Below, piece after piece: positions 1 through 20,895 of a stretch of DNA of 20,895 nt (positions within the stretch are counted from its first letter, which is position 1; each line of letters opens with the position of its first letter). The stretch comes from a virus (Duplodnaviria > Heunggongvirae > Uroviricota > Caudoviricetes). Location of the stretch: IMG/VR virus record IMGVR_UViG_2703718846_000002, one strand, 5' to 3'. The notes beneath the pieces are model-generated. The model did not search any database. It saw nothing but the letters and a program-made list of their open reading frames with translations, and had not been told where the DNA came from. Position numbers and translations under genes: made by a program.

Positions 1-19
1 CTATTTGATAAATATTAAA

Positions 20-1315: not shown

Positions 1316-1334
1316 TAGTTAGTGTGGCTTTTAG

Positions 1335-1586
1335 TCAAGTAAGATGACGTCTTGGTCTCGCTGATGCCTGGCGCTCAATCCAGCGATCAATTTCTTCCAG
1401 GTTGTAAAAGCATGGACTGTTATCCCATGGCATACCGTCATGAGCGACATGCTTATATTCCCTTCCTTCCATAAACGATTTTTCCCGGGCCTTTTTTAAC
1501 GTACCTTTTTTTATTCCTTTCAGCGCAATTAACTGCTCTTCGGATACCCATTTGCCGGGAGAGACAATCATGATTACTTCGCTCAT
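1335..1586 (-). CDS. Excisionase-like small DNA-binding protein
   Basis: 83-aa ORF immediately upstream of int on the same strand. Contains an EGREYKH segment resembling the lambda Xis DGREYLFH region. Confidence 0.55.
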   Translation of the reverse strand: MSEVIMIVSPGKWVSEEQLIALKGIKKGTLKKAREKSFMEGREYKHVAHDGMPWDNSPCFYNLEEIDRWIERQASARPRRHLT

Positions 1587-1658
1587 CGATTTCTTTATCT
1601 CTTACATCAGACGAGCGCCGGTTGCAGAATACCAGTCACAACCGGCGACAGTTGAACA

Positions 1659-2387: not shown

Positions 2388-3484
2388 TCCTCAAAGGCCG
2401 TTACGCTGATTTTGGACCTACGTTTGCGTGCGAAAAATTGCGCGAGATACACGGTTTATCTTTATCCGTTGAAACTCTCAGAAAGTGGATGATAGAAGAG
2501 GGGTTATGGCGTGAACGCCGTCGTAAAATTGCCCGTATATATCAACGCCGCATGCGACGACCATCTTACGGTGAACTGATCCAGATTGATGGCTCACCTC
2601 ATGACTGGTTTGAAAATCGAGGCCCCAGATGTACACTGATCGTTTTCATTGATGATGCCACCAGTGCGTTGATGGCGTTGCGTTTTGTGCCTGCTGAAAC
2701 AACCCGGGCTTACATGGAAACCCTCCGGGGTTACCTTAATGATCATGGCGTACCGCTCGCTCTCTACTCTGATAGACACAGTATATTCAGGGTAAATAAC
2801 CCAGAGCGGGAAGGTGAGCTGACCCAGTTCACTCGTGCGATAAAGACACTGGGCATCGAGCCAATCCATGCCAACAGCCCGCAGGCAAAAGGGCGGGTAG
2901 AGCGCGCCAATCAGACACTACAGGACAGGCTGGTCAAAGAAATGCGGCTTCAGAATATCAGTGATATTGAAACAGCAAATGCATGGTTGCCGACCTTTAT
3001 TGAAGCCTATAACAACCGGTTCGCTACGTCGCCTCGTACTACTGATAATGCTCATCTTGATGTGCACCATTCTGAAGAGGAACTGGGTTATATCTTCAGC
3101 CTACAGGCGAAGCGCGTTCTGTCTAAAAATCTCACTTTCCAGTACAAAAGCAGTGCGTTTCAGGTACGCAGTGAGGGCCGGGGATATCGACTTAGGCATT
3201 CGGTTGTTACTGTATGCGAGAACTTTGACGGTGAAATTAACGTTCTGTATGACGGGAAAGCGCTGGGCTGGGAAAAGTATGTTGATGGCCCGGAGCCTAT
3301 ACCACTGGATGATGAAAAGAGTGTCCATGAACGAGTGGATAATGCCCGTATTGATTTACGCTCAAAATACTATGTTAAACCTAAAGCTGACCATCCCTGG
3401 CTTACGCGCCGAACGCAAAGTCATCAGCAAGTTAAGCCCCCGAAGTTACCTAAAAAGAAGCCTGATCCCGATAAAAAAGATTGA
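2258..3484 (+). CDS. DDE-superfamily transposase/integrase-core protein, probably a 5'-truncated IS remnant (IS481/ISNCY-like)
   Basis: DDE triad context IQIDGS ... YSDRHS ... SPQAKGRVERANQTLQDRL (E-x-x-N-x-T-L signature). The N-terminal part of the ORF is an out-of-frame read across the exonuclease upstream region, so the real N-terminus with its HTH seems to be missing. No terminal inverted repeats were identified. Confidence 0.55.
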   Translation: MGDLPSRQFHYRYCDADCRQCSPCVDVQRLPFPPDHLPELQPSLLKGRYADFGPTFACEKLREIHGLSLSVETLRKWMIEEGLWRERRRKIARIYQRRMRRPSYGELIQIDGSPHDWFENRGPRCTLIVFIDDATSALMALRFVPAETTRAYMETLRGYLNDHGVPLALYSDRHSIFRVNNPEREGELTQFTRAIKTLGIEPIHANSPQAKGRVERANQTLQDRLVKEMRLQNISDIETANAWLPTFIEAYNNRFATSPRTTDNAHLDVHHSEEELGYIFSLQAKRVLSKNLTFQYKSSAFQVRSEGRGYRLRHSVVTVCENFDGEINVLYDGKALGWEKYVDGPEPIPLDDEKSVHERVDNARIDLRSKYYVKPKADHPWLTRRTQSHQQVKPPKLPKKKPDPDKKD

Positions 3485-3920
3485 AACCAAGATCGATTCG
3501 GTTGAGTGCATATCCATTCATAGGGTAGATTCTTAAGTCGCGTTTCTGGTGTTCATTTTCGGGTGGTTTGTTACTTGTTTTACCGGGGATATGCCAGAAA
3601 CGCGCTGAGTCAGTCTGGGCGGTGCGCGTAATGAGGCGTTATGGTAAATAGCCTATGCTAATGTCCGCTAAGAGCAAGAAGCGGAAGTTGGCAGTTTTGT
3701 GGACTGTCCCCACAAAAGTGACTACAGAAATAGTTGCAATTCATAATTGATCATGGGTTGTCAGTTAAACTCGTGGCGATTTAAATAGACTAATTGGGAG
3801 TGCGTCCATTACTTATATCTTGTAATGTTAACTATCAGAAATGATACAAAGATAATATGTCTTTAAAGAAAAGGCTGATGGCGAAAAGTGGCCCGATGAG
3901 GGCCACAATACGGCTGTCAC

Positions 3921-4253
3921 TTAGACGTAAATATCAATGGTGCCAGCGGTATTTGTATCGTCTTTTTTCTCTTCTTTTTTATCAGGCTGAACTGTCGCGT
4001 CTTCATTCTTTTTCTCTGCCTGCTGCCTTAACAACTGCTCCAGTTGAGCCCAGAGGCTTTCAATTTGCTTCTGTACCAATGCAGCCATTTCTTTTTTCTG
4101 CTGTGTCGTCATCCCCTCTTCCGATGAGATTTTCCCAAGCTTTTCAGTCAGCACCTGAATTTGTCTTGTGATTTTGGCTATTTCTGATGTTCCTTCCGGG
4201 GCGGAGTTGTTTGAAATAACGGTTGAGGTATTTCCCTGAATTGTGACAGACAT
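3921..4253 (-). CDS. flxA: FlxA (flagellar-regulon protein of the Qin prophage)
   Basis: 110-aa ORF (MSVTIQGNTSTVISNNSAPEGTSEIAKITRQIQVLTEKL...) recognised as FlxA; preceded by a sigma-28-type promoter. Confidence 0.8.
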   Translation of the reverse strand: MSVTIQGNTSTVISNNSAPEGTSEIAKITRQIQVLTEKLGKISSEEGMTTQQKKEMAALVQKQIESLWAQLEQLLRQQAEKKNEDATVQPDKKEEKKDDTNTAGTIDIYV

Positions 4254-4276
4254 AGATTTCTCCTTTTAAAAAAGCA

Positions 4277-4303
4277 CTATCGGCATGCACAAAAAAATCT
4301 TTA
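4277..4303 (-). promoter_or_regulatory. Sigma-28 (FliA) promoter for flxA
   Basis: Minus strand reads TAAAGATT - 11 nt - GCCGATAG against the consensus TAAAGTTT-N11-GCCGATAA, about 24 nt upstream of the flxA ATG, with AAAGGAGAAAT as SD. Confidence 0.6.
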
Positions 4304-4455
4304 ATCGTATTTCTTGTGTCATTAATTGTTTGATGTTCAGATTGTTTTCCTCGCGGGCTGGCGCGCCTCAGAAAGTAAAGCTTGTTGACAGGGGTAAACG
4401 TTCGGCAATAATTTTCTGCCGCATGCGGGTGTTGCATAAAACGTGTTACGTTCCT

Positions 4456-4761
4456 TTATCGACAGGTCAGGTCACCGCTCACCCGCCGACGAGAAAGCAA
4501 CACTGACATGCTAAAGCAAAAAATAGATGAATAAGTTGAGTTGTGCATATGTAGCCTGACCGTCACAAAGTATATGGTGTCTGTACCAGTAAGATGATGG
4601 CCGGACTCTTTAAAAACGAGCTGACCTGCACAATACAGGATGGACTTAGCAATGGCTGCTCCTGGCACAAAGCGGACAGTGATCACCGTTCTTACGACTA
4701 CTTTCTGACTTCCTTCGTGACTTGCCCTAAGCATGTTGTAGTGCGATACTTGTAATGACAT
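4456..4761 (-). CDS. ydfV: Hypothetical protein (ydfV-like by position and length)
   Basis: 101-aa ORF between flxA and relB. Composition is unconvincing and its start codon lies inside the relBE operator region. Confidence 0.3.
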   Translation of the reverse strand: MSLQVSHYNMLRASHEGSQKVVVRTVITVRFVPGAAIAKSILYCAGQLVFKESGHHLTGTDTIYFVTVRLHMHNSTYSSIFCFSMSVLLSRRRVSGDLTCR

Positions 4762-4785
4762 TTGTAATTACAAGAGGTGTAAGAC
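4745..4785 (+). promoter_or_regulatory. relBE promoter/operator (relO-like inverted TTGTAAT/ATTACAA repeats)
   Basis: Sequence CTTGTAATGACATTTGTAATTACAAGAGG lies immediately upstream of relB. Confidence 0.55.
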
Positions 4786-5025
4786 ATGGGTAGCATTAAC
4801 CTGCGTATTGACGATGAACTTAAAGCGCGTTCTTACGCCGCGCTTGAAAAAATGGGTGTAACTCCTTCTGAAGCGCTTCGTCTCATGCTCGAGTATATCG
4901 CTGACAATGAACGCTTGCCGTTCAAACAGACACTCCTGAGTGATGAAGATGCTGAACTTGTGGAGATAGTGAAAGAACGGCTTCGTAATCCTAAGCCAGT
5001 ACGTGTGACGCTGGATGAACTCTGA
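4786..5025 (+). CDS. relB: RelB antitoxin
   Basis: 79-aa ORF MGSINLRIDDELKARSYA...PKPVRVTLDEL, near-identical to recalled K-12 RelB; its stop overlaps the relE start (ATGA). Confidence 0.95.
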   Translation: MGSINLRIDDELKARSYAALEKMGVTPSEALRLMLEYIADNERLPFKQTLLSDEDAELVEIVKERLRNPKPVRVTLDEL

Positions 5026-5312
5026 TGGCGTATTTTCTGGATTTTGACGAGCGGGCACTAAAGGAATGGCGAAAGCTGGGCTCGACGGTACGTGAACAGT
5101 TGAAAAAGAAGCTGGTTGAAGTACTTGAGTCACCCCGGATTGAAGCAAACAAGCTCCGTGGTATGCCTGATTGTTACAAGATTAAGCTCCGGTCTTCAGG
5201 CTATCGCCTTGTATACCAGGTTATAGACGAGAAAGTTGTCGTTTTCGTGATTTCTGTTGGGAAAAGAGAACGCTCGGAAGTATATAGCGAGGCGGTCAAA
5301 CGCATTCTCTGA
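5025..5312 (+). CDS. relE: RelE mRNA-interferase toxin
   Basis: 95-aa ORF MAYFLDFDERALKEWRKLGSTVREQLKKKL... matching recalled RelE; translationally coupled to relB. Confidence 0.95.
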   Translation: MAYFLDFDERALKEWRKLGSTVREQLKKKLVEVLESPRIEANKLRGMPDCYKIKLRSSGYRLVYQVIDEKVVVFVISVGKRERSEVYSEAVKRIL

Positions 5313-5383
5313 ACCAAAGCATGACATCTCTGTTTCGCACCGAAGGTGACACTTCTGCTTTGCGTTGACAGGAGAAGCAGGCT

Positions 5384-5539
5384 ATGAAGCAGCAAAAGGC
5401 GATGTTAATCGCCCTGATCGTCATCTGTTTAACCGTCATAGTGACGGCACTGGTAACGAGGAAAGACCTCTGCGAGGTACGAATCCGAACCGGCCAGACG
5501 GAGGTCGCTGTCTTCACAGCTTACGAACCTGAGGAGTAA
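5384..5539 (+). CDS. hokD: Hok-family type I toxin (HokD/RelF)
   Basis: 51-codon ORF below the ORF-track size cutoff, translated by hand: MKQQKAMLIALIVICLTVIVTALVTRKDLCEVRIRTGQTEVAVFTAYEPEE. Single transmembrane helix. Confidence 0.8.
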   Translation: MKQQKAMLIALIVICLTVIVTALVTRKDLCEVRIRTGQTEVAVFTAYEPEE

Positions 5540-5607
5540 GAGACCCGGCGGGGGAGAAATCCCTCGCCACCTCTGATGTGGCAGGCATCCTCAACGCACC
5601 CGCACTT

Positions 5608-5634
5608 AACCCGCTTCGGCGGGTTTTTGTTTTT
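5608..5634 (+). terminator. Rho-independent terminator after hokD
   Basis: AACCCGC-TTCG-GCGGGTT hairpin followed by TTTTTGTTTTT. Confidence 0.6.
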
Positions 5635-5755
5635 ATTTTCAACGCGTTTGAAGTTCTGGACGGTGCCGGAATAGAATCAAAAATACTTAAGTAGCGCGCA
5701 GGGATAAGAGGGATGGTCCCTTAAAGGGGAGAGCTAATTATCCGGAAGGATTCTG

Positions 5756-6007
5756 ATGATGAACATCGAAGAACTGCGTAAAATTTTTTGTGAAGATGGC
5801 CTCTATGCTGTGTGCGTTGAAAATGGAAATCTTGTTAGTCATTACCGCATTATGTGTTTGCGAAAGAATGGGGCTGCGTTAATTAATTTTGTGGATGCTC
5901 GGGTCACGGACGGATTTATCTTGCGCGAAGGTGAGTTTGTCACTTCATTACAGGCATTGAAAGAGATCGGAATAAAAGCTGGCTTTTCTGCTTTTTCAGG
6001 AGAATAA
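5756..6007 (+). CDS. rem: Rem (Qin prophage small protein)
   Basis: 83-aa ORF MMNIEELRKIFCEDGLYAVCVENG... at the position of rem between hokD and ydfU. Confidence 0.65.
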   Translation: MMNIEELRKIFCEDGLYAVCVENGNLVSHYRIMCLRKNGAALINFVDARVTDGFILREGEFVTSLQALKEIGIKAGFSAFSGE

Positions 6008-6073
6008 ACTCATCTACAATCTTGCGCGGGGCTGAACTCCCGCTGAGTAACACCGTGCCACCGGAGAAAACCG

Positions 6074-6352
6074 ATGGCACGCAACGCAAAATATTACAAT
6101 TCTGATAATTCGCCCGTTCTTGCCTGCACGCACGGGCGGTATTCTCACGCATTCAAGTCTGAATGGTTCCAGCACCCTCCATGCACTGCAGAACAGGCCG
6201 AATGGCTGATTCATTCTTACCGCAGGCGCGGGTTCGAGGTTAAGAAAGCTCTCAGTCTCGACTATCGGCACTGGATAATCTCTGTCAGGCTGCCTTATTC
6301 CGAACGCCCACCACGTGCGTCCCGCACTTTCCAGCAACGGATCTGGAGGTAA
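6074..6352 (+). CDS. Hypothetical protein, translationally coupled to ydfU
   Basis: 92-aa ORF with a GGAGA SD 6 nt upstream. Its TAA stop is followed one base later by the GTG start of ydfU, with GGAGG inside its last codons. Confidence 0.4.
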   Translation: MARNAKYYNSDNSPVLACTHGRYSHAFKSEWFQHPPCTAEQAEWLIHSYRRRGFEVKKALSLDYRHWIISVRLPYSERPPRASRTFQQRIWR

Positions 6353-6353
6353 C

Positions 6354-7403
6354 GTGCGGGTATTACTTAGACCTGTTCTGGTGCCTGAGCTTGGGCTGGT
6401 GGTCCTTAAGCCGGGCCGTGAATCCATACAGATATTTCATAATCCTCGAGTGCTGGTGGAACCGGAACCAAAAAGCATGCGTAATCTGCCATCCGGAGTC
6501 GTTCCTGCCGTTCGCCAGCCGCTGGCGGAAGACAAAACATTGCTGCCGTTTTTTAGTAACGAACGGGTGATTCGTGCTGCTGGCGGCGTTGGCGCATTGT
6601 CCGACTGGCTATTACGTCATGTTACATCCTGCCAGTGGCCTAATGGCGATTACCATCACACTGAAACAGTCATTCACCGTTATGGTACCGGCGCAATGGT
6701 GTTGTGCTGGCACTGCGACAACCAACTGCGTGACCAGACATCGGAATCACTGGAGCTGCTTGCTCAACAAAATCTGACAGCATGGGTGATTGACGTCATC
6801 CGTCACGCAATAAGCGGTACGCAGGAGCGGGAATTATCTTTGGCTGAATTATCCTGGTGGGCGGTCTGCAATCAGGTGGTGGATGCACTACCTGAGGCTG
6901 TATCGCGTCGTTCGCTGGGATTACCAGCGGAAAAAATCTGCTCGGTGTACCGCGAAAGCGACATCGTACCGGGAGAGCAGACCGCCACCAGCATATTGAA
7001 ACAACGCACAAAAAATCTTGCACCGTTGCCTTACGCCCACCAGCAACAAAAATCACCACAGGAAAAGACGGTGGTAAGCATCACCGTTGATCCAGAGTCT
7101 CCGGAATCTTTCATGAAGCTGCCTAAACGTCGCCGCTGGGTTAAGGAGAAATACACACGTTGGGTTAAGACACAGCCGTGTGCTTGCTGCGGTATGCCAG
7201 CCGACGATCCGCATCATCTGATTGGTCACGGGCAGGGCGGAATGGGAACAAAAGCACATGATCTCTTTGTGTTGCCTTTGTGCAGAAAGCATCACAACGA
7301 GCTGCACACGGATACAGTGGCATTTGAAGATAAGTATGGCTCTCAACTGGAGCTGATATTTCGTTTTATCGATCGCGCGCTGGCAATTGGCGTACTGGCG
7401 TAA
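6354..7403 (+). CDS. ydfU: YdfU-like protein with a C-terminal HNH nuclease motif
   Basis: 349 codons from the GTG at 6354 (the ORF track extends to 6315). C-terminus reads CACCGMPADDPHHLIGHGQGGMGTKAHDLFVLPLCRKHHNELH (CxxC ... DxHH ... GG ... CxxH-H-N ... H). Confidence 0.7.
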   Translation: MRVLLRPVLVPELGLVVLKPGRESIQIFHNPRVLVEPEPKSMRNLPSGVVPAVRQPLAEDKTLLPFFSNERVIRAAGGVGALSDWLLRHVTSCQWPNGDYHHTETVIHRYGTGAMVLCWHCDNQLRDQTSESLELLAQQNLTAWVIDVIRHAISGTQERELSLAELSWWAVCNQVVDALPEAVSRRSLGLPAEKICSVYRESDIVPGEQTATSILKQRTKNLAPLPYAHQQQKSPQEKTVVSITVDPESPESFMKLPKRRRWVKEKYTRWVKTQPCACCGMPADDPHHLIGHGQGGMGTKAHDLFVLPLCRKHHNELHTDTVAFEDKYGSQLELIFRFIDRALAIGVLA

Positions 7404-7416
7404 GTGGAGAACGAGC

Positions 7417-8169
7417 ATGAACCTTGAAGCCTTACCAAAATATTACTCCCCAAAATCTCCAAAATTGAGCGATGACGCTCCAGCGACAGGCACCGGTTGT
7501 TTAACAATTACGGATGTAATGGCAGCGCAGGGGATGGTGCAGTCGAAAGCACCACTTGGGTTGGCCTTATTTCTGGCAAAAGTTGGTGTTCAGGACCCTC
7601 AGTTTGCGATTGAAGGCCTGCTAAATTACGCGATGGCACTGGATAACCCGACATTGAACAAATTGAGTGAAGAAATCCGGTTACAGATTATTCCTTACCT
7701 CGTGAGTTTTGCCTTTGCTGATTACTCCAGGTCTGCGGCAAGTAAGGCTCGCTGTGAGCATTGTTCAGGTACGGGATTTTATAATGTATTGCGCGAAGTG
7801 GTGAAACACTACAGACGCGGGGAATCTGTAATCAAGGAAGAATGGGTGAAGGAACTATGTCAGCATTGCCATGGTAAGGGCGAAGCCAGCACAGCGTGCA
7901 GAGGGTGTAAGGGTAAAGGGATTGTTCTGGATGAAAAAAGAACCCGGTTTCATGGCGTACCGGTATATAAGATTTGTGGGCGTTGTAATGGAAACCGGTT
8001 TAGTCGTTTACCGACCACGCTGGCACGACGTCATGTCCAGAAGCTGGTACCAGACCTGACCGATTATCAGTGGTATAAGGGGTATGCGGACGTCATTGGT
8101 AAACTGGTAACAAAGTGCTGGCAGGAAGAAGCATACGCGGAAGCGCAATTGAGGAAGGTGACGAGATAA
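7417..8169 (+). CDS. quuQ: Late-gene antiterminator Q (phage 82/21-type)
   Basis: 250 codons from the ATG at 7417, with a GGAGA SD. Several CxxC motifs (CEHCSGTG, CQHCHGKG, CRGCKGKG, CGRCNGN). Sits immediately before a promoter and hairpin like lambda pR'/tR'. Confidence 0.8.
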   Translation: MNLEALPKYYSPKSPKLSDDAPATGTGCLTITDVMAAQGMVQSKAPLGLALFLAKVGVQDPQFAIEGLLNYAMALDNPTLNKLSEEIRLQIIPYLVSFAFADYSRSAASKARCEHCSGTGFYNVLREVVKHYRRGESVIKEEWVKELCQHCHGKGEASTACRGCKGKGIVLDEKRTRFHGVPVYKICGRCNGNRFSRLPTTLARRHVQKLVPDLTDYQWYKGYADVIGKLVTKCWQEEAYAEAQLRKVTR

Positions 8170-8200
8170 ATGATTTTTGCTGAAGATGGCGACATGATGT

Positions 8201-8229
8201 TTGCATTTTTCAAAAAATATGGATAAAAT
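8201..8229 (+). promoter_or_regulatory. Sigma-70 promoter downstream of Q (pR'-like late promoter)
   Basis: TTGCAT - 17 nt - TAAAAT, about 30 nt after the quuQ stop. Confidence 0.5.
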
Positions 8230-8274
8230 TTTTTCAACGATGGGCTTTGTATACCCGACGTTAAGAAAAAGTAG

Positions 8275-8298
8275 AAAACCCGCTGATGAGCGGGTTTT
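8275..8298 (+). terminator. Intrinsic terminator (tR'-like)
   Basis: AAAACCCGC-TGATGA-GCGGGTTTT hairpin with a T-run, about 45 nt downstream of the pR'-like -10. Confidence 0.6.
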
Positions 8299-8590
8299 GT
8301 GCTTTAAATGGGGCAATGGTAATGTTGAATCTCATCCCGGGACTCATGTCTGTTAACTTATTATTTAGCTGGTGACTTGGTTATTTGCCTGATGTTTAAA
8401 ATGTTTTCTTCCAGTACAATGTCCCTAAACACAATGAGTCTGCTTATTATATTATTAGCAGAGCTATTACGGCCAAAGTACAGCATAAGCTTTTAAAGCC
8501 AATCAACCAGTCATCAAGACAGACGGGGTTATTCATAAAAACTCTCCATGTGTGATCCGATGGGGCCTGAAATTAAAGCTTTAATATAGC

Positions 8591-8803
8591 TCATGAAAGG
8601 TAAACATTGGCAGCTGAAGGGCCACGCAGACCATTTATCCGGCAAAATTCCACGCGTAATCCGGTGGTAATTTCTTCTGCATCGCGGAGATTGAGCGCTG
8701 AAACATGAAGCTGGACATCGATACGACCATCGGATGGGGTGATAAGACCCTTGCCGCTTTTGCCGTCAAAGGTTTTGACAATTCCTGTCATTTTACGGGA
8801 CAA
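8591..8803 (-). CDS. cspF: CspA-family cold-shock-like protein (CspF/CspH type)
   Basis: 70-aa [30 protein letters not shown]...[13 protein letters not shown], divergent from cspB as in Qin. The cspF versus cspH call rests on position only. Confidence 0.8.
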
Positions 8804-9103
8804 AAAAATTCCTTAATACTGATAACTTGGCGCACTATACACACGTTCCTGAAGAAAGCTATAGTTTTTTGATGGGGTTGAAGATGGCTGGATGTCTAAA
8901 ATAAACATTGCTTCATATGTTCAACTATGCGTTAATGATTGCGTCGGTTTGAAGAACAGACGATATACGAAGTAGTTTACTAAAGCAGTTCTCATTTCAG
9001 GTGTTATTCACTTATTCCTTCTTTGAGTCTCTCCAATTAAGTACGAAGTCGTTTCTGTTATGCAAACCATTTATGCCGAAAGGCTCAAGTTAAGGAATGT
9101 AGA

Positions 9104-9319
9104 ATGTCAAATAAAATGACTGGTTTAGTAAAATGGTTTAACGCTGATAAAGGTTTCGGCTTTATTTCTCCTGTTGATGGTAGTAAAGATGTGTTTGTGC
9201 ATTTTTCTGCGATTCAGAATGATAATTATCGAACCTTATTTGAAGGTCAAAAGGTTACCTTCTCTATAGAGAGTGGTGCTAAAGGTCCTGCAGCAGCAAA
9301 TGTCATCATTACTGATTAA
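9104..9319 (+). CDS. cspB: Cold-shock protein CspB
   Basis: 71-aa [70 protein letters not shown].... The 5' UTR carries a GCCGAAAGGC hairpin before the SD, as in cspA. Confidence 0.9.
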
Positions 9320-9600
9320 AATTCATCGCTCGTCTGTATACGATAACGAAGAAGGCTGATGCCTGAGTAGAGATACGGACAGAGTAGTGAATATTGGATC
9401 TCTTTAATAAAAAGTAAGGAGGTCCAATACATGAAACAATGGCTAGCATATTTGGCAAAATCTTAATCAGGAAAAGTATGCTAACCATTGTGGTGAAGTG
9501 CAGGTTTGCTGCATGAATAGTTTTACAGCAGAAGCTAACTGCTGGCATGGCAAAACAAAGTGCGTAAGTGGATGACTCCCACAAAAAGCACCACAATCTC

Positions 9601-9623
9601 AAACCCGCTCAGGCGGGTTTTTT
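9601..9623 (+). terminator. Intrinsic terminator with the same stem as the tR'-like hairpin
   Basis: AAACCCGC-TCAG-GCGGGTTT followed by TTTT. Confidence 0.55.
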
Positions 9624-9682
9624 ATTATCTGCTTTAAATATATTATTAAAATATAAAAAATACTTGTTACTAATAAAATCAA

Positions 9683-9853
9683 TCAGGCTACAGCTTTAAG
9701 ATTTGTCTGGAATACTTTGTTGCAATGAGGGCAGATCAAAAGGGCACCTTTTTGTACTCTTGAAAAACTGTGTTCTGACTCTTGGGTGCAGTTTGGGCAG
9801 GAACATTTAACGAGATAATTACGGCGTGATTTTGAGTTTTTACGTTCTGACAT
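9683..9853 (-). CDS. Small zinc-ribbon protein, Com-like (CxxC ... SF ... CxxC)
   Basis: 56 codons from an internal Met with an AGGAAA SD: MSERKNSKSRRNYLVKCSCPNCTQESEHSFSRVQKGALLICPHCNKVFQTNLKAVA. The ORF track extends it to 9904. Confidence 0.45.
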   Translation of the reverse strand: MSERKNSKSRRNYLVKCSCPNCTQESEHSFSRVQKGALLICPHCNKVFQTNLKAVA

Positions 9854-10072
9854 AGGCTTTTCCTGTATAAATGGCCGTATACAGTACACTAAATATGAAA
9901 ACATTTCTCGTATTATTATTTTATATATGACTTTCTTTCAAAATAATTACCCACATTTTTAATGTGTATGTTTTTTTAGCGCCGTTGAGAACAACGTGTG
10001 CTGTCAAAACTACCCCGTAGACTCCGATCTTTTCAAACATATTGCACCATCCGTGTACATCGGGGTGAGGAT

Positions 10073-10288
10073 ATGAAATCAATGGATAAGTTAACAACAG
10101 GTGTTGCCTATGGCACATCGGCGGGTAATGCTGGTTTCTGGGCATTGCAGTTACTCGATAAAGTAACTCCGTCACAGTGGGCTGCAATCGGTGTGCTGGG
10201 TAGCCTGGTTTTTGGCCTGCTGACGTATCTGACAAATCTTTATTTCAAGATTAAAGAAGACAGGCGTAAGGCTGCGAGAGGAGAGTAA
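10073..10288 (+). CDS. essQ: Class II holin/pinholin (phage 21 S-type) with a dual-start motif
   Basis: 71 codons from MKSMDK... with a GGTGAGG SD. Met1-Lys-Ser-Met4 dual start and a hydrophobic core ([18 protein letters not shown]); the ORF track extends it upstream to 9998. Confidence 0.85.
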
Positions 10289-10292
10289 TCCA

Positions 10293-10600
10293 ATGACTCA
10301 AGACTATGAACTGGTTGTGAAAGGAGTCCGTAATTTTGAGAATAAAGTTACGGTAACTGTAGCCTTACAGGACAAAGAACGCTTTGACGGTGAAATTTTT
10401 GACCTGGATGTCGCCATGGACCGTGTTGAAGGAGCTGCGCTGGAGTTTTATGAGGCAGCAGCCAGAAGGAGCGTCCGGCAAGTCTTCCTGGAAGTAGCAG
10501 AAAAATTGTCAGAAAAAGTTGAGTCTTATCTGCAGCATCAGTACTCCTTTAAGATTGAAAATCCTGCCAATAAGCACGAGCGTCCTCATCATAAATATCT

Positions 10601-10604
<4 letters not shown>
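10293..10604 (+). CDS. ydfR: Hypothetical protein inside the lysis cassette (YdfR-like)
   Basis: 103-aa ORF with a strong GAGAGGAGAG SD inside the end of the holin gene; its stop overlaps the endolysin start (ATGA). Confidence 0.7.
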
Positions 10605-11628
<1,024 letters not shown>

Positions 11629-11990
11629 GGTAATATTAAATCGGAACATTTACATCGCGGAATGTAAAATTTAAATAAAAAGGACTCTTCCATGAGCCAA
11701 AATTCCTGAAATCTTAAGGGTAAGATAAAAGGTCTTAATCAGAATGACACGTTTTATTAATAAATAAAGCTATTCTTTCATTGCTGTGTTTTTCTTTACA
11801 AAAGTAATCCTTGCTATGGGTGGTTAATCATGCGTTAATGGTGTTCTGGTTTGTTACAAATTTATCTGAAGCAGTCATTGTTATAATTTTATTATTTGTA
11901 CCTCTTGAGATTTCCTTGTTGGTTTTTCTCTCTGATATTTTTTTTCGGACCATTCTGCCCAAGGGCTAATTTCTTCAAAAGGTAATAATT

Positions 11991-12203
11991 ATGTCTAACA
12001 AAATGACTGGTTTAGTGAAATGGTTTAACCCTGAAAAAGGTTTTGGTTTCATCACGCCGAAAGATGGCAGCAAAGATGTGTTTGTCCATTTCTCAGCAAT
12101 TCAGAGCAACGATTTCAAAACATTAACTGAGAATCAGGAAGTTGAATTTGGTATTGAGAACGGACCTAAAGGTCCTGCCGCTGTTCATGTAGTGGCGCTT
12201 TGA
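11991..12203 (+). CDS. cspI: Cold-shock protein CspI
   Basis: 70-aa [73 protein letters not shown]. Confidence 0.9.
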
Positions 12204-12407
12204 GGTAGACAATATTACAAACCATATTCACTTTAGATGCCCGTGTTGTCATGGTTCCCAGTATAGAACATCATCTTTTGATGTTTCTGACATGAATCCT
12301 TTCGGGGCAAAATGTATCTTTTGTAAATCAATGATGATTACATTTGATAATATTTCACAATACTTAAATGCCAGCCGTCTGTCGTTGGATTTAAAAAAGT
12401 GAAAATG

Positions 12408-12430
12408 AAGGCTCCTTCGGGAGCTTTTTT
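12408..12430 (+). terminator. Intrinsic terminator about 200 nt downstream of cspI
   Basis: AAGGCTCC-TTCG-GGAGCTT hairpin followed by TTTTTT. Confidence 0.5.
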
Positions 12431-12474
12431 GCTTGGTGTCTATTCGATGGATACTCACATACTACGGTAACATC

Positions 12475-12705
12475 ATGAAAAAAATCATAGTTTTTTTTAA
12501 CTCTGAACCAGCAGTGGTAGTGCCAGCGATGACTGGAGTTAACACCATCATGCGTGAATATCCAAATGGCGAAAAAACACACCTTACTGTAATGGCCGCA
12601 GGGTTTCCATCTCTGACCGGAGATCATAAAGTCATTTATGTAGCCGCGGATCGACATGTTACTTCAGAAGAAATTCTGGAAGCAGCAATAAGGCTCTTGA
12701 GTTGA
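12475..12705 (+). CDS. Hypothetical small protein
   Basis: 76 codons from the internal Met MKKIIVFFNSEPAVVV...; balanced composition but a weak RBS. A competing minus-strand ORF (12391..12657) looks less protein-like. Confidence 0.3.
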   Translation: MKKIIVFFNSEPAVVVPAMTGVNTIMREYPNGEKTHLTVMAAGFPSLTGDHKVIYVAADRHVTSEEILEAAIRLLS

Positions 12706-12876
12706 TTTGATGCTATTGCATTGATAATTCAGGAAAATTCTCTTTGTCTGTTTGTGTAAAATTTAGACTATCGTATGTTGATTATTGCGATGTTTCATCT
12801 TATCTTTTACACGTTTGCACCATATAATCGACTTACTGTGTAACTGGAAAGTCATAACAGACTAAAAGAGGAAATG

Positions 12877-13050
12877 ATGAATATTGAAAACTTAAAAACA
12901 AAAGCAGAAGCAGATATTTCTGAATATATAACAAAAAAAATTATTGAACTTAAGAAAAAGACCGGGAAAGAAGTTACCAGTATTCAGTTTACCGCACGGG
13001 AAAAAATGACGGGTCTTGAAAGCTATGATGTCAAGATTAATTTAATCTGA
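12877..13050 (+). CDS. gnsB: GnsB (suppressor of secG-null cold sensitivity)
   Basis: 57-codon ORF below the ORF-track cutoff, translated by hand: MNIENLKTKAEADISEYITKKIIELKKKTGKEVTSIQFTAREKMTGLESYDVKINLI. Confidence 0.8.
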   Translation: MNIENLKTKAEADISEYITKKIIELKKKTGKEVTSIQFTAREKMTGLESYDVKINLI

Positions 13051-13201
13051 TGTATTCAATAATAAAATTTATCCATAAACCTCGTTTTTACGGGGTTTTG
13101 TTATATTTGAATGGTTCCGAATATCTAAATCACAATTGTTGATGGTTTTTATTAAACCAATGCAGTCCGGCTCAGGAGTGAGAGAAGCCGGACGTTATGG
13201 T

Positions 13202-13612
13202 TTAGCGTGGTAAGATCTGTGTAGTTTTCTGGATGCTTTCAGTAAATAGTAATGAATTATCAAAGGTATAGTAATATCTTTTTTGTTCGTGGATATTTGT
13301 AACCCACCGAAAAACTCCTGCTTTAGCAAGGTTTCTTCTGTATTCCTGAAATGTGATCTCTCTGGATTTCAGCTTATTAGAGGTCGTTTCTATAAGATGC
13401 CTATCCTTTGAAAATTTGACAGACACAATGTTTTTTAGGCCCTTTAATAACACTGTATTATCATTTTTTAATACAATATGAACATTCTCTGTGGCTAAAT
13501 AGTAAATGTAATGTGAGACATTGTGACGTTTTAGCTCAGAATAAAACCATTGATAGTTTAAATCGTTTCGAACTTTATCAAATATTTGTTTAAAAATGAC
13601 TACCTGATCCAT
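13202..13612 (-). CDS. ydfO: YdfO-like protein of unknown function
   Basis: 136 codons from [11 protein letters not shown]... with a GGAAGG SD 8 nt upstream; the ORF track extends it to 13627. Confidence 0.7.
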
Positions 13613-13669
13613 AGATAAACCTTCCATGTGATATGAGGGGGCGTAGTCTGCACGATTATCTAAATTGCT

Positions 13670-13903
13670 TCAATCTGGTCTGACCTGTTTTCTGAGCAAT
13701 TCAGTAATGTCACTCTTTTCTTTGTTTGCTTCAGAAGAAACTCTTTTTTCTGAGCACAGTCTCCGGCGGCAGGCTTCAATGACCCAGGCTGAGAAATTCC
13801 CGGACCCTTTTTGCTCAAGAGCGATGTTAATTTGTTCAATCATTTGGTTAGGAAAGCGGATGTTGCGGGTTGTTGTTCTGCGGGTTCTGTTCTTCGTTGA
13901 CAT
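13670..13903 (-). CDS. ynfO: Ribbon-helix-helix (Arc/MetJ/CopG-type) DNA-binding protein
   Basis: 77-aa ORF with the RHH pattern RNIRFPNQMIEQINIALEQKGSGNFSAWVIEACRRRL (strand, helix, G-x-S loop, helix); 57 nt upstream of ydfO on the same strand. Confidence 0.6.
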   Translation of the reverse strand: MSTKNRTRRTTTRNIRFPNQMIEQINIALEQKGSGNFSAWVIEACRRRLCSEKRVSSEANKEKSDITELLRKQVRPD

Positions 13904-13974
13904 GAGGTTGCCCTGTATTCAGTGTCGCTGATTTGTATTGTCTGAAGTTGTTTTTACGTTAAGTTGATGCAGAT

Positions 13975-14290
13975 CAATTAATACGATACCTGCGTCATAA
14001 TTGATTATTTGACGTGGTTTGATGGCCTCCACGCACGTTGTGATATGTAGATGATAATCATTATCACTTTACGGGTCCTTTCCGGTGATCCGACAGGTTA
14101 CGGGGCGGCGACCTCGCGGGTTTTCGCTATTTATGAAAATTTTCCGGTTTAAGGTGTTTCCGTTCTTCTTCGTCGTAACTTAATGTTTTTATTTAAAATA
14201 CCCCCTGAAAAGAAAGGAAACGACAGGTGCTGAAAGCGGGCTTTTTGGCCTTTGTCGTTTCCTTTCTCTGTTTTTGTCCGTGGAATGAAC
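13975..14290 (+). other. Lambda-type cos site (cosQ-cosN-cosB) with the 12-nt cohesive-end sequence GGGCGGCGACCT at about 14103..14114
   Basis: Reads ...GATCCGACAGGTTACG GGGCGGCGACCT CGCGGGTTTTCGCTATTTATGAAAATTTTCCGG..., near-identical to the lambda cos junction as recalled, immediately upstream of the Nu1 start. Confidence 0.85.
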
Positions 14291-14291
14291 A

Positions 14292-14837
14292 ATGGAAGTC
14301 AACAAAAAGCAGCTGGCTGACATTTTCGGTGCGAGTATCCGTACCTTTCAGAACTGGCAGGAACAGGGAATGCCCGTTCTGCGAGGCGGTGGCAAGGGTA
14401 ATGAGGTGCTTTATGATTCTGCCGCCGTCATAAAATGGTATGCCGAAAGGGATGCTGAAATTGAGAACGAAAAGCTGCGCCGGGAGGTTGAAGAACTGCT
14501 GCAGGCCAGCGAGACAGATCTCCAGCCAGGGACTATTGAGTACGAACGCCATCGACTTACGCGTGCGCAGGCCGACGCACAGGAGCTGAAAAATGCCAGA
14601 GACTCCGCTGAAGTGGTGGAAACCGCATTCTGTACTTTCGTGCTGTCGCGGATCGCAGGTGAAATTGCCAGTATTCTCGACGGGATCCCCCTGTCGGTGC
14701 AGCGGCGTTTTCCGGAACTGGAAAACTGACATGTTGATTTCCTGAAACGGGATATCATCAAAGCCATGAACAAAGCAGCCGCGCTGGATGAACTGATACC
14801 GGGGTTGCTGAGTGAATATATCGAACAGTCAGGTTAA
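14292..14837 (+). pseudogene. nohA: Terminase small subunit Nu1 homolog interrupted by an in-frame TGA at 14727..14729
   Basis: 145-aa ORF MEVNKKQLADIFGASIRTFQNWQEQGMPVLRGGGKGNEVLYD... matches lambda Nu1. After the TGA the same frame continues [35 protein letters not shown] to a TAA, restoring a 181-codon Nu1. Confidence 0.8.
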
Positions 14838-17013
14838 CAGGCTGCGGCATTTTGTCCGCGCCGGGCTTCGCTCACTGTTCAGGCCGGAGCCACAGACCGC
14901 CGTTGAATGGGCGGATGCCAATTACTATCTCCCGAAAGAATCCGCATACCAGGAAGGGCGCTGGGAAACACTGCCCTTTCAGCGGGCCATCATGAATGCG
15001 ATGGGCAGCGACTACATCCGCGAGGTGAATGTGGTGAAGTCTGCCCGTGTTGGTTATTCCAAAATGCTGTTGGGTGTTTATGCCTACTTCATAGAGCATA
15101 AGCAGCGCAACACACTTATCTGGTTGCCGACGGATGGTGATGCCGAGAACTTTATGAAAACCCACGTTGAGCCGACCATCCGTGATATTCCTTCGCTGCT
15201 GGCGCTGGCCCCGTGGTATGGCAAAAAGCACCGGGATAACACGCTCACCATGAAGCGTTTCACCAATGGGCGTGGCTTCTGGTGCCTGGGCGGTAAAGCG
15301 GCAAAAAACTACCGTGAAAAGTCAGTGGATGTGGCGGGTTATGATGAACTTGCTGCCTTTGATGAGGATATTGAACAGGAAGGCTCTCCGACGTTCCTGG
15401 GCGATAAGCGTATTGAAGGCTCTGTCTGGCCAAAATCCATCCGTGGCTCCACGCCCAAAGTGAGAGGCACCTGCCAGATTGAGCGTGCAGCCAGTGAATC
15501 CCCGCATTTTATGCGTTTTCATGTTGCCTGCCCGCACTGCGGGAAGGAGCAGTACCTTAAATTTGGCGACAAAGAGACGCCGTTTGGCCTCAAATGGATG
15601 CCGGATGATCCCTCCAGCGTGTTTTATCTCTGTGAGCATAATGCCTGCGTCATCCGTCAGCAGGACGGAACGTTTAAGCCAGCATACAGCAACAACATGG
15701 CCTGGTGTCTGTGGGATATGCTGACCCACCCGCGCTACGGCATGGGTAAACGTCTTGGTGCGGCAGATGTGGATAAATGGGCGCTGTATGTCATCGGCCA
15801 GTGTTGCGACCAGTCGGTGCCGGACGGTTTTGGCGGCACGGAGCCGCGCATCACCTGTAATGCCTGGCTGACCACACAGCGTAAGGCGTGGGATGTTCTC
15901 AGTGATTTCTGCTCGGCGATGCGCTGTATGCCGGTATGGAACGGGCAGACGCTGACGTTCGTGCAGGACCGACCATCAGATAAGGTGTGGACCTATAACC
16001 GCAGTAATGTGGTGATGCCGGATGATGGCGCGCCGTTCCGCTACAGCTTCAGCGCCCTGAAGGACCGCCATAATGCCGTTGAGGTGAACTGGATTGACCC
16101 GGATAACGGCTGGGAGACGGCGACAGAGCTTGTGGAGGACACGCAGGCCATTGCCCGTTACGGTCGTAACGTCACGAAGATGGATGCCTTTGGCTGTACC
16201 AGGCGGGGGCAGGCGCACCGAGCCGGGCTGTGGCTGATTAAAACGGAACTGCTGGAAACGCAGACCGTGGACTTCAGCGTGGGTGCCGAAGGGCTTCGCC
16301 ATGTACCAGGTGATGTCATTGAAATCTGTGATGATGACTATGCGGGGATCAGCATCGGCGGGCGCGTGCTGGCGGTGAACAGCCAGACGCGGACACTGAC
16401 GCTCGACCGTGAAATCACGCTGCCATCCTCCGGCACCACGCTGATAAGCCTGGTTGACGGGCAGGGTAATCCGGTGAGCGTGGAGGTCCAGTCCGTCACC
16501 GACGGCGTGAAGGTGAAAGTGAGCCGGGTTCCTGACGGCGTTGCCGAGTACAGCGTGTGGGGGCTGAAGCTGCCGACGCTGCGTCAGCGCCTGTTCCGCT
16601 GTGTGAGTATCCGTGAGAACGATGACGGTACGTATGCCATCACTGCCGTGCAGCATGTACCGGAGAAAGAAGCCATCGTGGATACCCATAGTGTTAGCGG
16701 TACGGCTGCTTCAGCCGGTGCACATACCCATTCGATGACATTTGTTTCAGGTGGTTCCAGTGGTGCTCCGGGAAGTGGATCACCTGATTATTCTAAATAC
16801 AGTGTTAACACTTCTTCTGCAGGCGCTCATACGCACTCTGTATCGGGTACTGCTGCAAGCGCAGGTGCACACGCACATACTGTCGGTATTGGTGCTCATA
16901 CGCACTCCGTTGCGATTGGTTCACATGGACATACCATCACCGTTAACGCTGCTGGTAACGCGGAAAACACCGTCAAAAACATCGCATTTAACTATATTGT
17001 GAGGCTTGCGTAA
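14812..17013 (+). pseudogene. stfQ: In-frame chimera: terminase large subunit A N-terminus, internal segment of tail-tip protein J, side-tail-fibre C-terminus
   Basis: Residues 1 to about 284 ([19 protein letters not shown] ... CVIRQQ) match lambda gpA. The next segment ([28 protein letters not shown] ... [10 protein letters not shown]) matches internal lambda J. The last ~110 aa (GAHTHS repeats ... [11 protein letters not shown]) match the side-tail-fibre C-terminus. Junctions lie near 15663 and 16683. Confidence 0.8.
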
Positions 17014-17588
17014 TGGCATTCAGAATGAGTGAACAACCACGGACCATAAAAATTTATAATCTGCTGGCCGGAACTAATGAATTTATTGGTGAAGGTGACG
17101 CATATATTCCGCCTCATACAGGTCTGCCAGCAAACAGTACCGATATTGCACCGCCAGATATTCCGGCAGGCTTCGTGGCTGTTTTCAACAGTGATGAGGC
17201 ATCGTGGCATCTCGTTGAAGATCATCGGGGTAAAACGGTTTATGACGTGGCTTCCGGCGACGCGTTATTTATTTCTGAACTCGGTCCGTTACCGGAAAAT
17301 GTTACCTGGTTATCGCCGGGAGGGGAATATCAGAAGTGGAACGGCACAGCCTGGGTGAAGGATACGGAAGCAGAAAAACTGTTCCGGATCCGGGAGGCGG
17401 AAGAAACAAAAAACAGCCTGATGCAGATAGCCAGTGAGCATATAGCGCCGCTTCAGGATGCTGTGGATCTGGAGATCGCAACGGAGGAAGAAACCTTGTT
17501 GCTGGAAGCCTGGAAAAAGTATCGGGTGTTGCTGAACCGTGTTGATACATCAACTGCACCGGATATTGAATGGCCAGCACTGCCGTAG
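17013..17588 (+). CDS. tfaQ: Tail fibre assembly protein
   Basis: 191-aa [42 protein letters not shown]...; its start overlaps the stop of the fibre remnant (TAATG). Confidence 0.85.
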
Positions 17589-17685
17589 GGTAAAACATAT
17601 AAATTCTATAATTAGATGTATCTCTCCATTTACGGCAAGGAAGGGGGCTTGGAAGACGTAAAGCATCTCACACCGAGATTATTTT

Positions 17686-18276
17686 TTATATGTCAGGTGT
17701 CTGAAGTTTTGCTTTGGCTCTTAAAATGGTTTGCCGCGAGGTTTTGAATTCCCGGGCAATGGCACTTATACTTACACCTGACTTAATTCGTTCGAATACC
17801 ACCTGTTTCTGTTCTTCATTTAACACAGGTGGTCGACCAAAACGTTTCCCTGCGCCGCGGGCTCTTACTATCCCGGAATGAGTGCGTTCAAGTAAAAGGT
17901 CTCGTTCAAATTCAGCGACTGCTGAAATTACGTGCATCATCATTTTTCCTGTTGGACTGGTCAGGTCAATGCCCCCCAATGCTAAGCAATGCACTCTGAT
18001 ACCTGTTTCGGTCAGTTGTTCCACTGTTTTCCTGATATCCATTGCATTACAACCAAGGCGATCCAGTTTTGTCACAATCAATTGATCACCACATTTCAGG
18101 CGAGCAAGCAACCGGTTAAAACCAGGACGCTCACTGGTTGCTGCTGAGCCGCTAATGTGTTCTTCGATTATTTGCTGAGGTTTGATTTTAAAACCTGCAC
18201 TTTCGATTTCCCGGCGTTGATTTTCGGTGGTCTGATCCAGCGTTGATATCCGACAGTAAGCAAAAATTCGAGACAT
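17686..18276 (-). CDS. pinQ: Serine recombinase/DNA invertase Pin (Gin/Hin/Cin family)
   Basis: 196-aa [23 protein letters not shown]... with the catalytic Ser in the N-terminal RIS motif and a C-terminal HTH. Confidence 0.9.
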
Positions 18277-18592
18277 AGTGAGACTCTATACGAAATTGGT
18301 GTTCATATCATAATGCATCTCAGAAAATAATTTTGATTATTTTTGTGCATATTTGTATGTACACGTTCGAAAATAAACGAATGCGTATGCAACCCCGTAA
18401 CTTTGGTGAGACCCAAAATCGATTTTGTGAAAAATGGCTTTAACTCGGTTTGTTTTTCGAGTTCCGGGCGGACTCAAGGAAGAAGAATAGTGTTGCGTGT
18501 TATTTTAACCAGATTTCAAGTTGTTTGGTCGTGGAAAAGTGGAGCAAAATGTTGTTAAAGTGGAAAAATGATAAAAAAGTAAGTTTATTATA

Positions 18593-18826
18593 TTACATTT
18601 TACCATTTAAATTTTGGTTGTCTTTAAGAACTGATATCGCTGTTTGTAATAATTCTTTGTTATCCAGCCATGATTTTTTCTTTATGTTTCCTTCAATGTA
18701 ATCAAGCAATGTTCTGGTATTGATAGGTCTTCCCTGTTTTGCTACTTCCACTACAGCATCCCCTAGGATAATTCTGACTTCAGGAAGCTGCGCAGGGAAC
18801 CACTTTAGGGTGTCTTTTGATTTCAT
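18593..18826 (-). CDS. ydfK: YdfK/YnaE-family small protein (cold-shock-induced family)
   Basis: 77 codons from MKSKDTLKWFPAQLPEVRIILGDAVVEVAKQGRPINTRTLL...; the ORF track extends it to 18859. Confidence 0.75.
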   Translation of the reverse strand: MKSKDTLKWFPAQLPEVRIILGDAVVEVAKQGRPINTRTLLDYIEGNIKKKSWLDNKELLQTAISVLKDNQNLNGKM

Positions 18827-19611
18827 GAATATATTCCTTAAAATATTATTGATTTTCATTGCGATATTGTATGTCTGATTCAGGATATGTTGACTTATAC
18901 ATCGGTTTTGTCTGGGTTATTGGATATGCCAATCCCTAATTTTATTAGAGCATGACTAAAAATGCTGAATATGATAAGGAGCGAAGTGATTATCAGTATG
19001 CTGTTCATATAGCCTCGAATTAGTAATGTGTTATATATGATATAGTTGACAATTTTTATCCTGGGTGTTCTTAAAGTTCGTAGATAAACATTGTCGTTTC
19101 AGGTATACAGGAATGCTAACAGATGGCGGCAAAAATCAGGCGGTTTATGGCGCAAGCTGAAGTGGCAACTGCAAACTATCTTATGCAGAGACTCTACACG
19201 GATTGGGTTTAAAAGTATACATAGATAACAGTTTTTATCTGAAGAAGAAAAATATCAAGGTGATATAGCCTATATGCCTTTGATGTGGAGGAATGAATGT
19301 GATGGGAGTGATGTATCTGAATAGTTGAAAAACCGCAGACACGCCTTATGCAAGAACGTGCTGCGGTTGGCTGGTAAATTTTTCGATAGTGCGAGTATTG
19401 AATGATTTCCAGCCGTTATTGATTTTACGCGTAACTCCATGAAAAAACTACTTATCTGTTGAGGAGTTTTTTTGGGGCATATATGGGACAGAAATGGGCC
19501 CCAGATAGACACTGAGATCGAACTTAGGATGCTTTTTAAAAAATGCAACTATCTGAAAAAACCTAGAAAACGCCAAGGAAACCACAGGATGGGAAAAAAC
19601 ACCTGTGAATT

Positions 19612-20895
19612 ATGGATTTCCAGTTATATTCGCTCGGCGCAGCGTTAGTGTTTCATGAAATATTTTTTCCTGAATCATCAACGGCAATGGCGTTAATTCT
19701 GGCAATGGGAACCTACGGTGCAGGTTATGTGGCGCGTATTGTCGGAGCATTTATTTTCGGCAAAATGGGCGACAGAATAGGGCGTAAAAAAGTGCTCTTT
19801 ATTACCATCACCATGATGGGGATCTGTACCACCTTAATTGGTGTGTTACCGACCTATGCACAGATTGGTGTTTTTGCACCCATCTTGCTGGTGACGTTGC
19901 GTATTATTCAGGGGTTGGGTGCAGGTGCGGAAATTTCCGGTGCCGGTACGATGCTGGCGGAATATGCGCCAAAAGGTAAGCGCGGAATTATCTCCTCATT
20001 TGTGGCTATGGGAACTAACTGCGGAACCTTGAGCGCAACGGCAATCTGGGCCTTTATGTTCTTCATTCTCAGTAAAGAGGAACTGCTGGCGTGGGGATGG
20101 CGTATACCGTTCCTGGCGAGTGTTGTCGTGATGGTCTTTGCTATCTGGTTGCGTATGAATCTGAAAGAAAGCCCGGTCTTTGAGAAGGTTAACGACAGTA
20201 ACCAACCGACAGCAAAACCTGCACCTGCTGGTAGCATGTTCCAGAGCAAATCCTTCTGGCTGGCAACAGGGCTGCGTTTTGGTCAGGCGGGTAACTCCGG
20301 GTTAATTCAGACTTTCCTTGCAGGCTATTTAGTGCAGACGTTATTGTTTAACAAAGCAATTCCAACAGATGCATTGATGATCAGTTCGATTCTCGGCTTT
20401 ATGACCATTCCGTTCCTTGGTTGGTTATCCGATAAAATTGGTCGCCGGATCCCGTATATTATTATGAATACCTCCGCGATTGTGCTGGCATGGCCAATGC
20501 TTTCTATCATTGTAGATAAAAGCTATGCCCCGAGCACCATTATGGTTGCACTGATTGTGATTCATAACTGTGCGGTGCTGGGATTATTTGCTCTGGAAAA
20601 CATTACCATGGCAGAAATGTTCGGCTGTAAAAACCGCTTTACCCGGATGGCTATTTCTAAAGAAATTGGTGGTCTTATCGCTTCCGGTTTTGGTCCTATC
20701 CTGGCGGGTATTTTCTGCACCATGACGGAATCCTGGTATCCGATCGCCATTATGATCATGGCATATTCAGTGATTGGTTTAATCTCTGCGCTGAAAATGC
20801 CAGAGGTGAAAGACCGTGATTTAAGTGCGCTGGAAGACGCTGCGGAAGATCAACCGCGTGTTGTAAGAGCTGCGCAACCTTCCAGAAGTCTGTAA
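19612..20895 (+). pseudogene. ydfJ: MFS metabolite:H+ symporter (ydfJ-like), N-terminally truncated at the prophage junction
   Basis: 427-aa ORF beginning MDFQLYSLGAALVFHEIFFP, which corresponds to the conserved (W)FDFY region about 30-35 residues into intact family members such as KgtP. An in-frame TGA lies two codons upstream of the first Met. The window ends at the stop codon. Confidence 0.65.

Follow-up and report, generated by a model that had tools for sequence, protein, structure and literature searches.

Why does a Nu1 homologue stop at an in-frame TGA after 145 codons when the rest of the gene can still be read behind it? The question is raised by a window of 20,895 nucleotides (the whole stretch of DNA analysed here, IMG/VR record IMGVR_UViG_2703718846_000002), in which an ATG at 14292 opens the frame. 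The answer that we consider very probable is a recent, probably neutral pseudogenisation of an orphaned nohA gene, by a CGA>TGA change (R146*), in a Qin-type cryptic prophage. The coordinates of the features are given in Table 1.

Table 1. Features of the cos-nohA-A' region, with the substitutions that distinguish it from its nearest sister
Feature	Position in window	Strand	Description
cos region	14103..14291	+	cosN 12-mer GGGCGGCGACCT at 14103-14114, then cosB; collinear with lambda from base 1 onward
Remaining Nu1 frame, 145 codons	14292..14726	+	PF07471, E=2.3e-88; winged-HTH and central region kept
Premature TGA, Nu1/nohA codon 146	14727..14729	+	C>T at 14727, R146*
Orphaned 35 codons and native TAA	14730..14837	+	100% identical to intact copies; C-terminal gpA-binding part
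733-aa in-frame fusion ORF	14812..17013	+	gpA 1 to ~284, J ~261-601, side-tail-fibre C-terminus
Nu1 nt 55	14346		A>T, I19F
Nu1 nt 195	14486		A>G, synonymous
Nu1 nt 209	14500		G>T, R70L
Nu1 nt 436	14727		C>T, R146*
Substitution cluster, 814 nt	13914..14727	.	5 of 6 differences: 13914, 14346, 14486, 14500, 14727

The letters at window positions 14720-14729 read ggaaaactga, which places the TGA at 14727-14729, and the base directly 3' of it is a C (UGA-C context). Translation of 14292-14837 in a single frame gave 145 amino acids, a stop, 35 further amino acids and a TAA. Sequence and translation therefore agree with an earlier sequence-only reading, according to which a single in-frame TGA at codon 146 splits the Nu1 frame and is followed by 35 codons of the expected C-terminus. 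Lambda Nu1 and the intact E. coli NohA and NohD proteins end in exactly these 35 residues. The overlap of the native stop with the A start, also part of that reading, was found as well: the TAA lies at 14835-14837 and the GTG start of the A homologue at 14812, 26 nt ahead of it, in overlapping frames. The geometry is the same in lambda (Nu1 191-736, A 711-2636).

The truncated product matched the Pfam family Phage_Nu1 (PF07471) at profile positions 1-145 of 164, with the E-value given in Table 1, and the match extended over the complete profile (1-164 of 164, E=2.9e-99) when codon 146 was read as Arg. Over the 549-nt region only four positions differ from the closest intact copies, one of them making the stop, and the Nu1-like frame on either side of the TGA is no chance pattern of open reading frames. 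Lambda gpNu1 (NP_040580, 181 aa) is encoded by DNA that is 98.4% identical to the window gene, with 9 mismatches in 549 nt, and shares its cos-Nu1-A layout. Apart from the TGA in place of CGA, the window gene differs from lambda by I19F, R70L and the common E. coli variants A75T and L132I; its partner A is truncated and the head genes are absent. The gene thus matches the family profile but lacks an uninterrupted frame of about 181 codons with the C-terminal gpA-binding segment. It is a pseudogene of the Phage_Nu1 family and not a functional member, and in annotation the 145-codon ORF would be better called a nohA pseudogene.

Nucleotide alignment of the 549-nt region showed CGA (Arg) at codon 146 in every comparator, namely lambda (two records), K-12 nohA (Qin), K-12 nohD (DLP12), VG48B2 nohA, ACN002, phage PhiR70_1 and GCA_054240585.1. 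A single C>T transition, R146*, thus accounts for the stop. The sequence-only reading had given CGA for lambda and had proposed one C-to-T change; both lambda records do carry CGA, and the alignment to lambda, nohA and nohD upholds the single change. In none of the homologues examined is this stop the normal end of the gene. Two points had no place in that reading, the gutted prophage in which the gene lies and the extra lineage-specific changes that accompany the stop (I19F, R70L and one synonymous).

From an integrase that adjoins rspB to ydfJ, the window comprises an entire cryptic prophage of E. coli, of the Qin type. Its left end comprises the integrase and an excisionase adjoining rspB, pseudogene debris, flxA, ydfV, relBE, hokD, rem, ydfU and a Q antiterminator. 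In the right part the lysis genes are followed by cspI-ymcF-ynfN-gnsB-ydfO-ynfO-nohA-...-tfaQ-pinQ-ydfK-ynfT-ydfJ, as in K-12 Qin and VG48B2. The features by which Qin is recognised, location at ydfJ and the order cspB/cspF, essQ-rrrQ-rzpQ, cspI, gnsB, ydfO, ynfO, nohA, tfaQ, pinQ, ydfK, were all found. The window is collinear with K-12 Qin at 99.7% identity over 6.2 kb and 98.6% over 4.1 kb, and with VG48B2 at 99.8-100%.

The K-12 gene nohA (b1548) occupies the identical locus, with ynfO, ydfO, gnsB and cspI on one side and tfaQ, pinQ, ydfK and ydfJ on the other, and it is likewise a Nu1 remnant without a functional terminase partner. It has CGA at codon 146 and leaves the Nu1 sequence at nt 530, at a deletion junction, to give a 189-aa product abutting stfQ. 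K-12 nohA has thus lost the last few Nu1 codons, whereas the window keeps the native 3' end of Nu1 and 284 codons of A, and has an internal stop.

Little of lambda is left around the gene. Between cos and tfa, a BLAST comparison with lambda found only three surviving segments, lambda 1-1564, 16284-17305 and 21824-22538. The first contains cos, Nu1 and A codons 1 to about 284 and corresponds to window 14103-15665 with 97.4% identity; the second, from the middle of J, lies at 15663-16684, and the third, the end of stf with tfa, at 16864-17578. Lambda 1565-16283 is missing, a deletion of about 14.7 kb that took away the remainder of A, every head gene and most of the tail genes. Missing are the nuclease half of A, W, the portal, protease, decoration and capsid genes, and the tail genes Z through I, as well as the N-terminus and the end of J, lom and the N-terminus of Stf. 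With its head genes and most of its tail genes gone, the prophage is defective.

What remains of A is part of the 733-aa fusion ORF, in which Pfam found GpA_ATPase at residues 47-285 and Phage-tail_3 at residues 354-521; the gpA part is the ATPase domain only. The cos region is there, and so is the overlap with the A start, but a functional A partner is lacking, since only about 284 codons of A are left, fused to J/Stf. The exact 733-aa protein is on record on six contigs. For annotation, this ORF is a fusion remnant and not a terminase. At the same place VG48B2 has an A' of 82 codons, then an L fragment and then J', and this different arrangement indicates that the two Qin remnants have independent deletion histories. 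The left arm of the window (1-7000) contains int, xis, a truncated exonuclease gene, several pseudogenes and an ISNCY transposase remnant, and aligns with relatives in two to three pieces. The matched span is 10.7-12 kb in relatives (e.g. BUCT2930) versus 7 kb in the window, which points to further deletions in the window lineage and to IS insertions in the relatives.

A search of related strains for the variant, which the sequence-only reading had proposed, found the identical Nu1 allele (T55, G195, T209, T436), TGA included, in three NCBI draft assemblies, GCA_001575625.1, GCA_012378555.1 and GCA_012349805.1. The first is 100% identical to window 6812-20895, and the other two are 100% identical over their aligned lengths. 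The contigs that span the site measure 305 kb, 67 kb and 5 kb, and all three assemblies lack a protein call at the Nu1 position, as expected for an annotated pseudogene. One of them may be the source of the window itself, so that the allele is backed by at least two further assemblies. From its presence in several assemblies it looks like a genuine marker of a lineage, a small group of E. coli genomes, and not a one-off read error.

The order of events can be read from GCA_054240585.1, which has the same 733-aa fusion together with an intact 181-aa Nu1 and CGA at codon 146. As it shares the fusion yet keeps Nu1 intact, the deletions preceded the stop, which arose later, in a sub-lineage in which the prophage was already dead. 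That the 35 downstream codons have suffered no further damage argues for a recent event. Large deletions first cut A after its ATPase domain, fused it to J/Stf and removed the portal, the capsid and most tail genes. With packaging lost, selection on nohA would have ceased, and the gene would have drifted and acquired a stop. Because the prophage was already gutted, with A truncated and fused, the stop would have been of little functional consequence.

The T is rare. By megablast, a 41-mer centred on the SNP and bearing the T was found in one of 5426 complete E. coli genomes, 4452 of which contain a match to the Nu1 region; together they have 8575 Nu1 places, with up to eight per genome. An exact scan with the T-bearing 31-mer gave no match in species-representative genomes, IMG/VR viral contigs or JGI metagenome contigs, while the C-bearing 31-mer, used as positive control, had 30 matches in the species-representative collection.

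The sole carrier among the complete genomes, RMDEC332, has the same CGA>TGA at codon 146 in locus ACNUK7_RS07795, annotated by PGAP as a "DNA-packaging protein" pseudogene with "internal stop". It lies in a different lambdoid prophage, in which full-length A, W, B, C and D are still there, and its SNP background differs from that of the window at nt 39, 72, 93, 96 and 102 and lacks T55, G195 and T209. The other prophage and the other background indicate that the event was independent. CGA occurs three times in the intact gene, at codons 31, 88 and 146, and about 17 different transitions would give it a stop; with 8575 Nu1 places a single recurrence needs no special explanation. In RMDEC332 the mutated gene (6585-7130) is accompanied by full-length A, W, portal, protease and D genes and by a truncated major capsid gene; an IS621 element lies just downstream.

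The stop is not the only change in the allele. Compared with its nearest sister, GCA_054240585.1, the window shows six substitutions over 10,231 nt. The gene nohA contains four of them, and the fifth, 13914 C>T, lies 11 nt upstream of the start codon of the minus-strand gene ynfO. Five of the six are thus clustered (Table 1), which uniform drift does not predict, and part of the allele, possibly the stop, was perhaps imported by conversion. The changes in nohA are mostly protein-altering (I19F and R70L, with one synonymous), in agreement with relaxed constraint. I19 lies inside the recognition helix, between the DNA-contact residues T18 and Q20. TerS residues 65-70 form a patch in which PICI Rpp-escape mutations occur, e.g. 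R70P in phage 80 (PMC6739421). R70L of the window (14500, codon 70) falls in this patch and is common to K-12 nohD and about 448 complete genomes.

The pair G195+T209 is the haplotype of DLP12 nohD and was found in 448 of the 5426 complete genomes. K-12 nohD (b0560) encodes a full-length 181-aa Nu1 homologue adjoining a truncated A (the aaaD pseudogene). It lies in another prophage at another locus, and its frame is intact, with CGA at codon 146. What sets it apart from the window are nt 126 and nt 285, together with sites in the upstream region. As judged from the sequences compared, the shared pair suggests a short gene-conversion tract between prophage copies. Part of the allele, possibly with the stop, may accordingly have been recombined in from an unsampled Nu1 copy, with the same outcome for the gene.

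It is rather unlikely that the stop itself was imported in this way, by gene conversion or recombination from an already decayed Nu1 copy elsewhere in its own genome or in that of a donor; the gene would still be a pseudogene and only the origin of the T would differ. Besides the clustering of five of the six differences within 13914-14727 and the exact nohD haplotype at G14486 and T14500, the finding of T13914 in ACN002 speaks for such an import, as do the up to eight Nu1-homologous places per E. coli genome, which could serve as templates. The five variants together were, however, present in none of the sequences compared (lambda, DLP12, Qin, ACN002, RMDEC332, E. albertii, Shigella and others). 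T14346 is absent from all 5426 complete E. coli genomes, and the only other carrier of T14727, RMDEC332, differs in background at all the other sites. Moreover, the flanking positions 14417 and 14576 do not have the K-12 nohD state, which limits a nohD-type tract to less than 160 nt. A point mutation in an orphaned gene remains the preferred origin of the stop.

Translation would end after residue 145, 36 codons ahead of the native end. The predicted product would keep the N-terminal cosB-binding winged-HTH and the central region and would lose the last 36 residues. Self-association of gpNu1 lies at about residues 100-140, and a finer boundary for gpA binding, about 141-181, is said to come from work by Yang et al. 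in 1999. The overlapping A' start lies 85 nt past the stop, and if its translation was coupled to that of Nu1, this coupling would be lost. The gpA-binding C-terminal portion has been given as residues 100-181 (PMC6739421), and the DNA-binding (cosB-contact) residues as K5, K6, S15, R17, T18, Q20, N21 and Q23 (PMC9611059). All eight contact residues are kept in the window translation. The PDB entries for Nu1 are N-terminal fragments only, up to residue 98, and residue 146 is in no solved complex.

Nu1 binds cosB and recruits gpA via its C-terminal region (PMC9611059, PMC6739421). This role, the only one known for Nu1, is without a partner in the window element. An intact nohA is nevertheless kept in most Qin-type remnants, K-12 nohD and VG48B2 nohA included, and some selection on intact Nu1 in cryptic prophages is possible. 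A literature search on nohA and Qin found nothing specific to either. The gene and its cryptic prophage are both well known; the window adds a pseudogene allele, about which nothing lies outside known biology. It offers a clean example of the stepwise decay of such a prophage, by large deletions and then by point inactivation of the orphaned small-terminase gene.

Could the shortened protein instead have been selected? A putatively expressed NohA(1-145), with DNA binding and self-association kept and gpA recruitment lost, might inhibit superinfecting lambdoid phages, either as a dominant-negative protein or by occluding cos, in loose analogy to PICI Rpp or SaPI Ppi. If so, it would be a simple new packaging-interference defence, encoded by a prophage and made by a single nonsense mutation. 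The position of the stop would suit this, as the 36 residues that are lost form the end of the TerL-binding portion and the DNA-binding domain stays whole. The same codon was hit independently in RMDEC332, and interference through the small terminase is a documented anti-phage strategy (PMC6739421). We nevertheless hold adaptive truncation to be very improbable. Very few genomes carry the allele, its I19F, in the recognition helix, is likelier to weaken than to preserve DNA binding, and one recurrence is unremarkable given about 17 routes and 8575 Nu1 places. Furthermore, full-length lambda TerS is reported to be highly insoluble (PMC6739421).

Little weight falls on a sequencing or assembly artefact with C as the true base, which is most improbable. 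Nu1 is a multi-copy repeat and drafts often break at its nt 435-440, which makes the site sensitive to assembly, and the contig of a close relative, GCA_054243745.1, stops one base before the T and so cannot confirm it. Against this, three separate NCBI assemblies, of which no more than one can have supplied the window, are identical across the site, and the haplotype that bears the T has two further variants that are private or rare.

Programmed recoding, by which the UGA would be decoded as selenocysteine or read through (Trp) to yield a functional full-length NohA, is hardly credible: the downstream frame is fully intact and the UGA-C context makes low-percentage read-through plausible, but no SECIS or other Rfam family was found at the stop site, the 86 nt at 14715-14800 fold no better than shuffled sequences (z = -0.25, with 77 of 200 shuffles folding as well), every relative encodes Arg at codon 146 so that the UGA is not conserved in homologues, and leaky read-through would be incidental, not programmed, with a non-functional gpA as partner. 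UGA-C is reportedly the weakest termination context in E. coli, a statement attributed to Poole, Brown and Tate in 1995, and a small amount of read-through product, probably R146W, would be possible as an incidental by-product of the pseudogene.

The breaks at Nu1 nt 435-440 also bear on how database records of this gene are to be read. The exact 145-aa protein is on record once, labelled "partial", at the contig end of GCA_054243745.1 (8001-8435), an assembly that shares the linked variants. This contig end might be taken as evidence for a branch between C and T in the assembly graph. Many unrelated drafts break at the same nucleotides, however, and the contig is accordingly uninformative on the T. 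More generally, draft E. coli contigs often end there and give rise to many "partial" DNA-packaging proteins of 145-146 aa. These mimic the truncated product and are artefacts of assembly breaks at the repeat.

Among the matches to the wild-type 31-mer, the exact lambda Nu1 was found in assemblies of unrelated bacteria, among them Shewanella, Pseudomonas, Kitasatospora, Marinifilum, Paenibacillus and Bradyrhizobium. The contigs concerned are either about 48.4-48.5 kb long or tiny and of low coverage, and the presence of lambda Nu1 in these unrelated bacteria looks like contamination with lambda control DNA.

The Rfam scan of the whole window gave only three matches. IS009 was matched at full length (221.5 bits) at 17356-17554 on the plus strand, inside the coding region of tfaQ. 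The other two are 5' UTRs of the cspA thermoregulator type, at 8943-9335 and 11845-12230 on the plus strand (158.8 and 112.8 bits), and both lie upstream of cold-shock genes of the prophage, a cspB-like gene and cspI.
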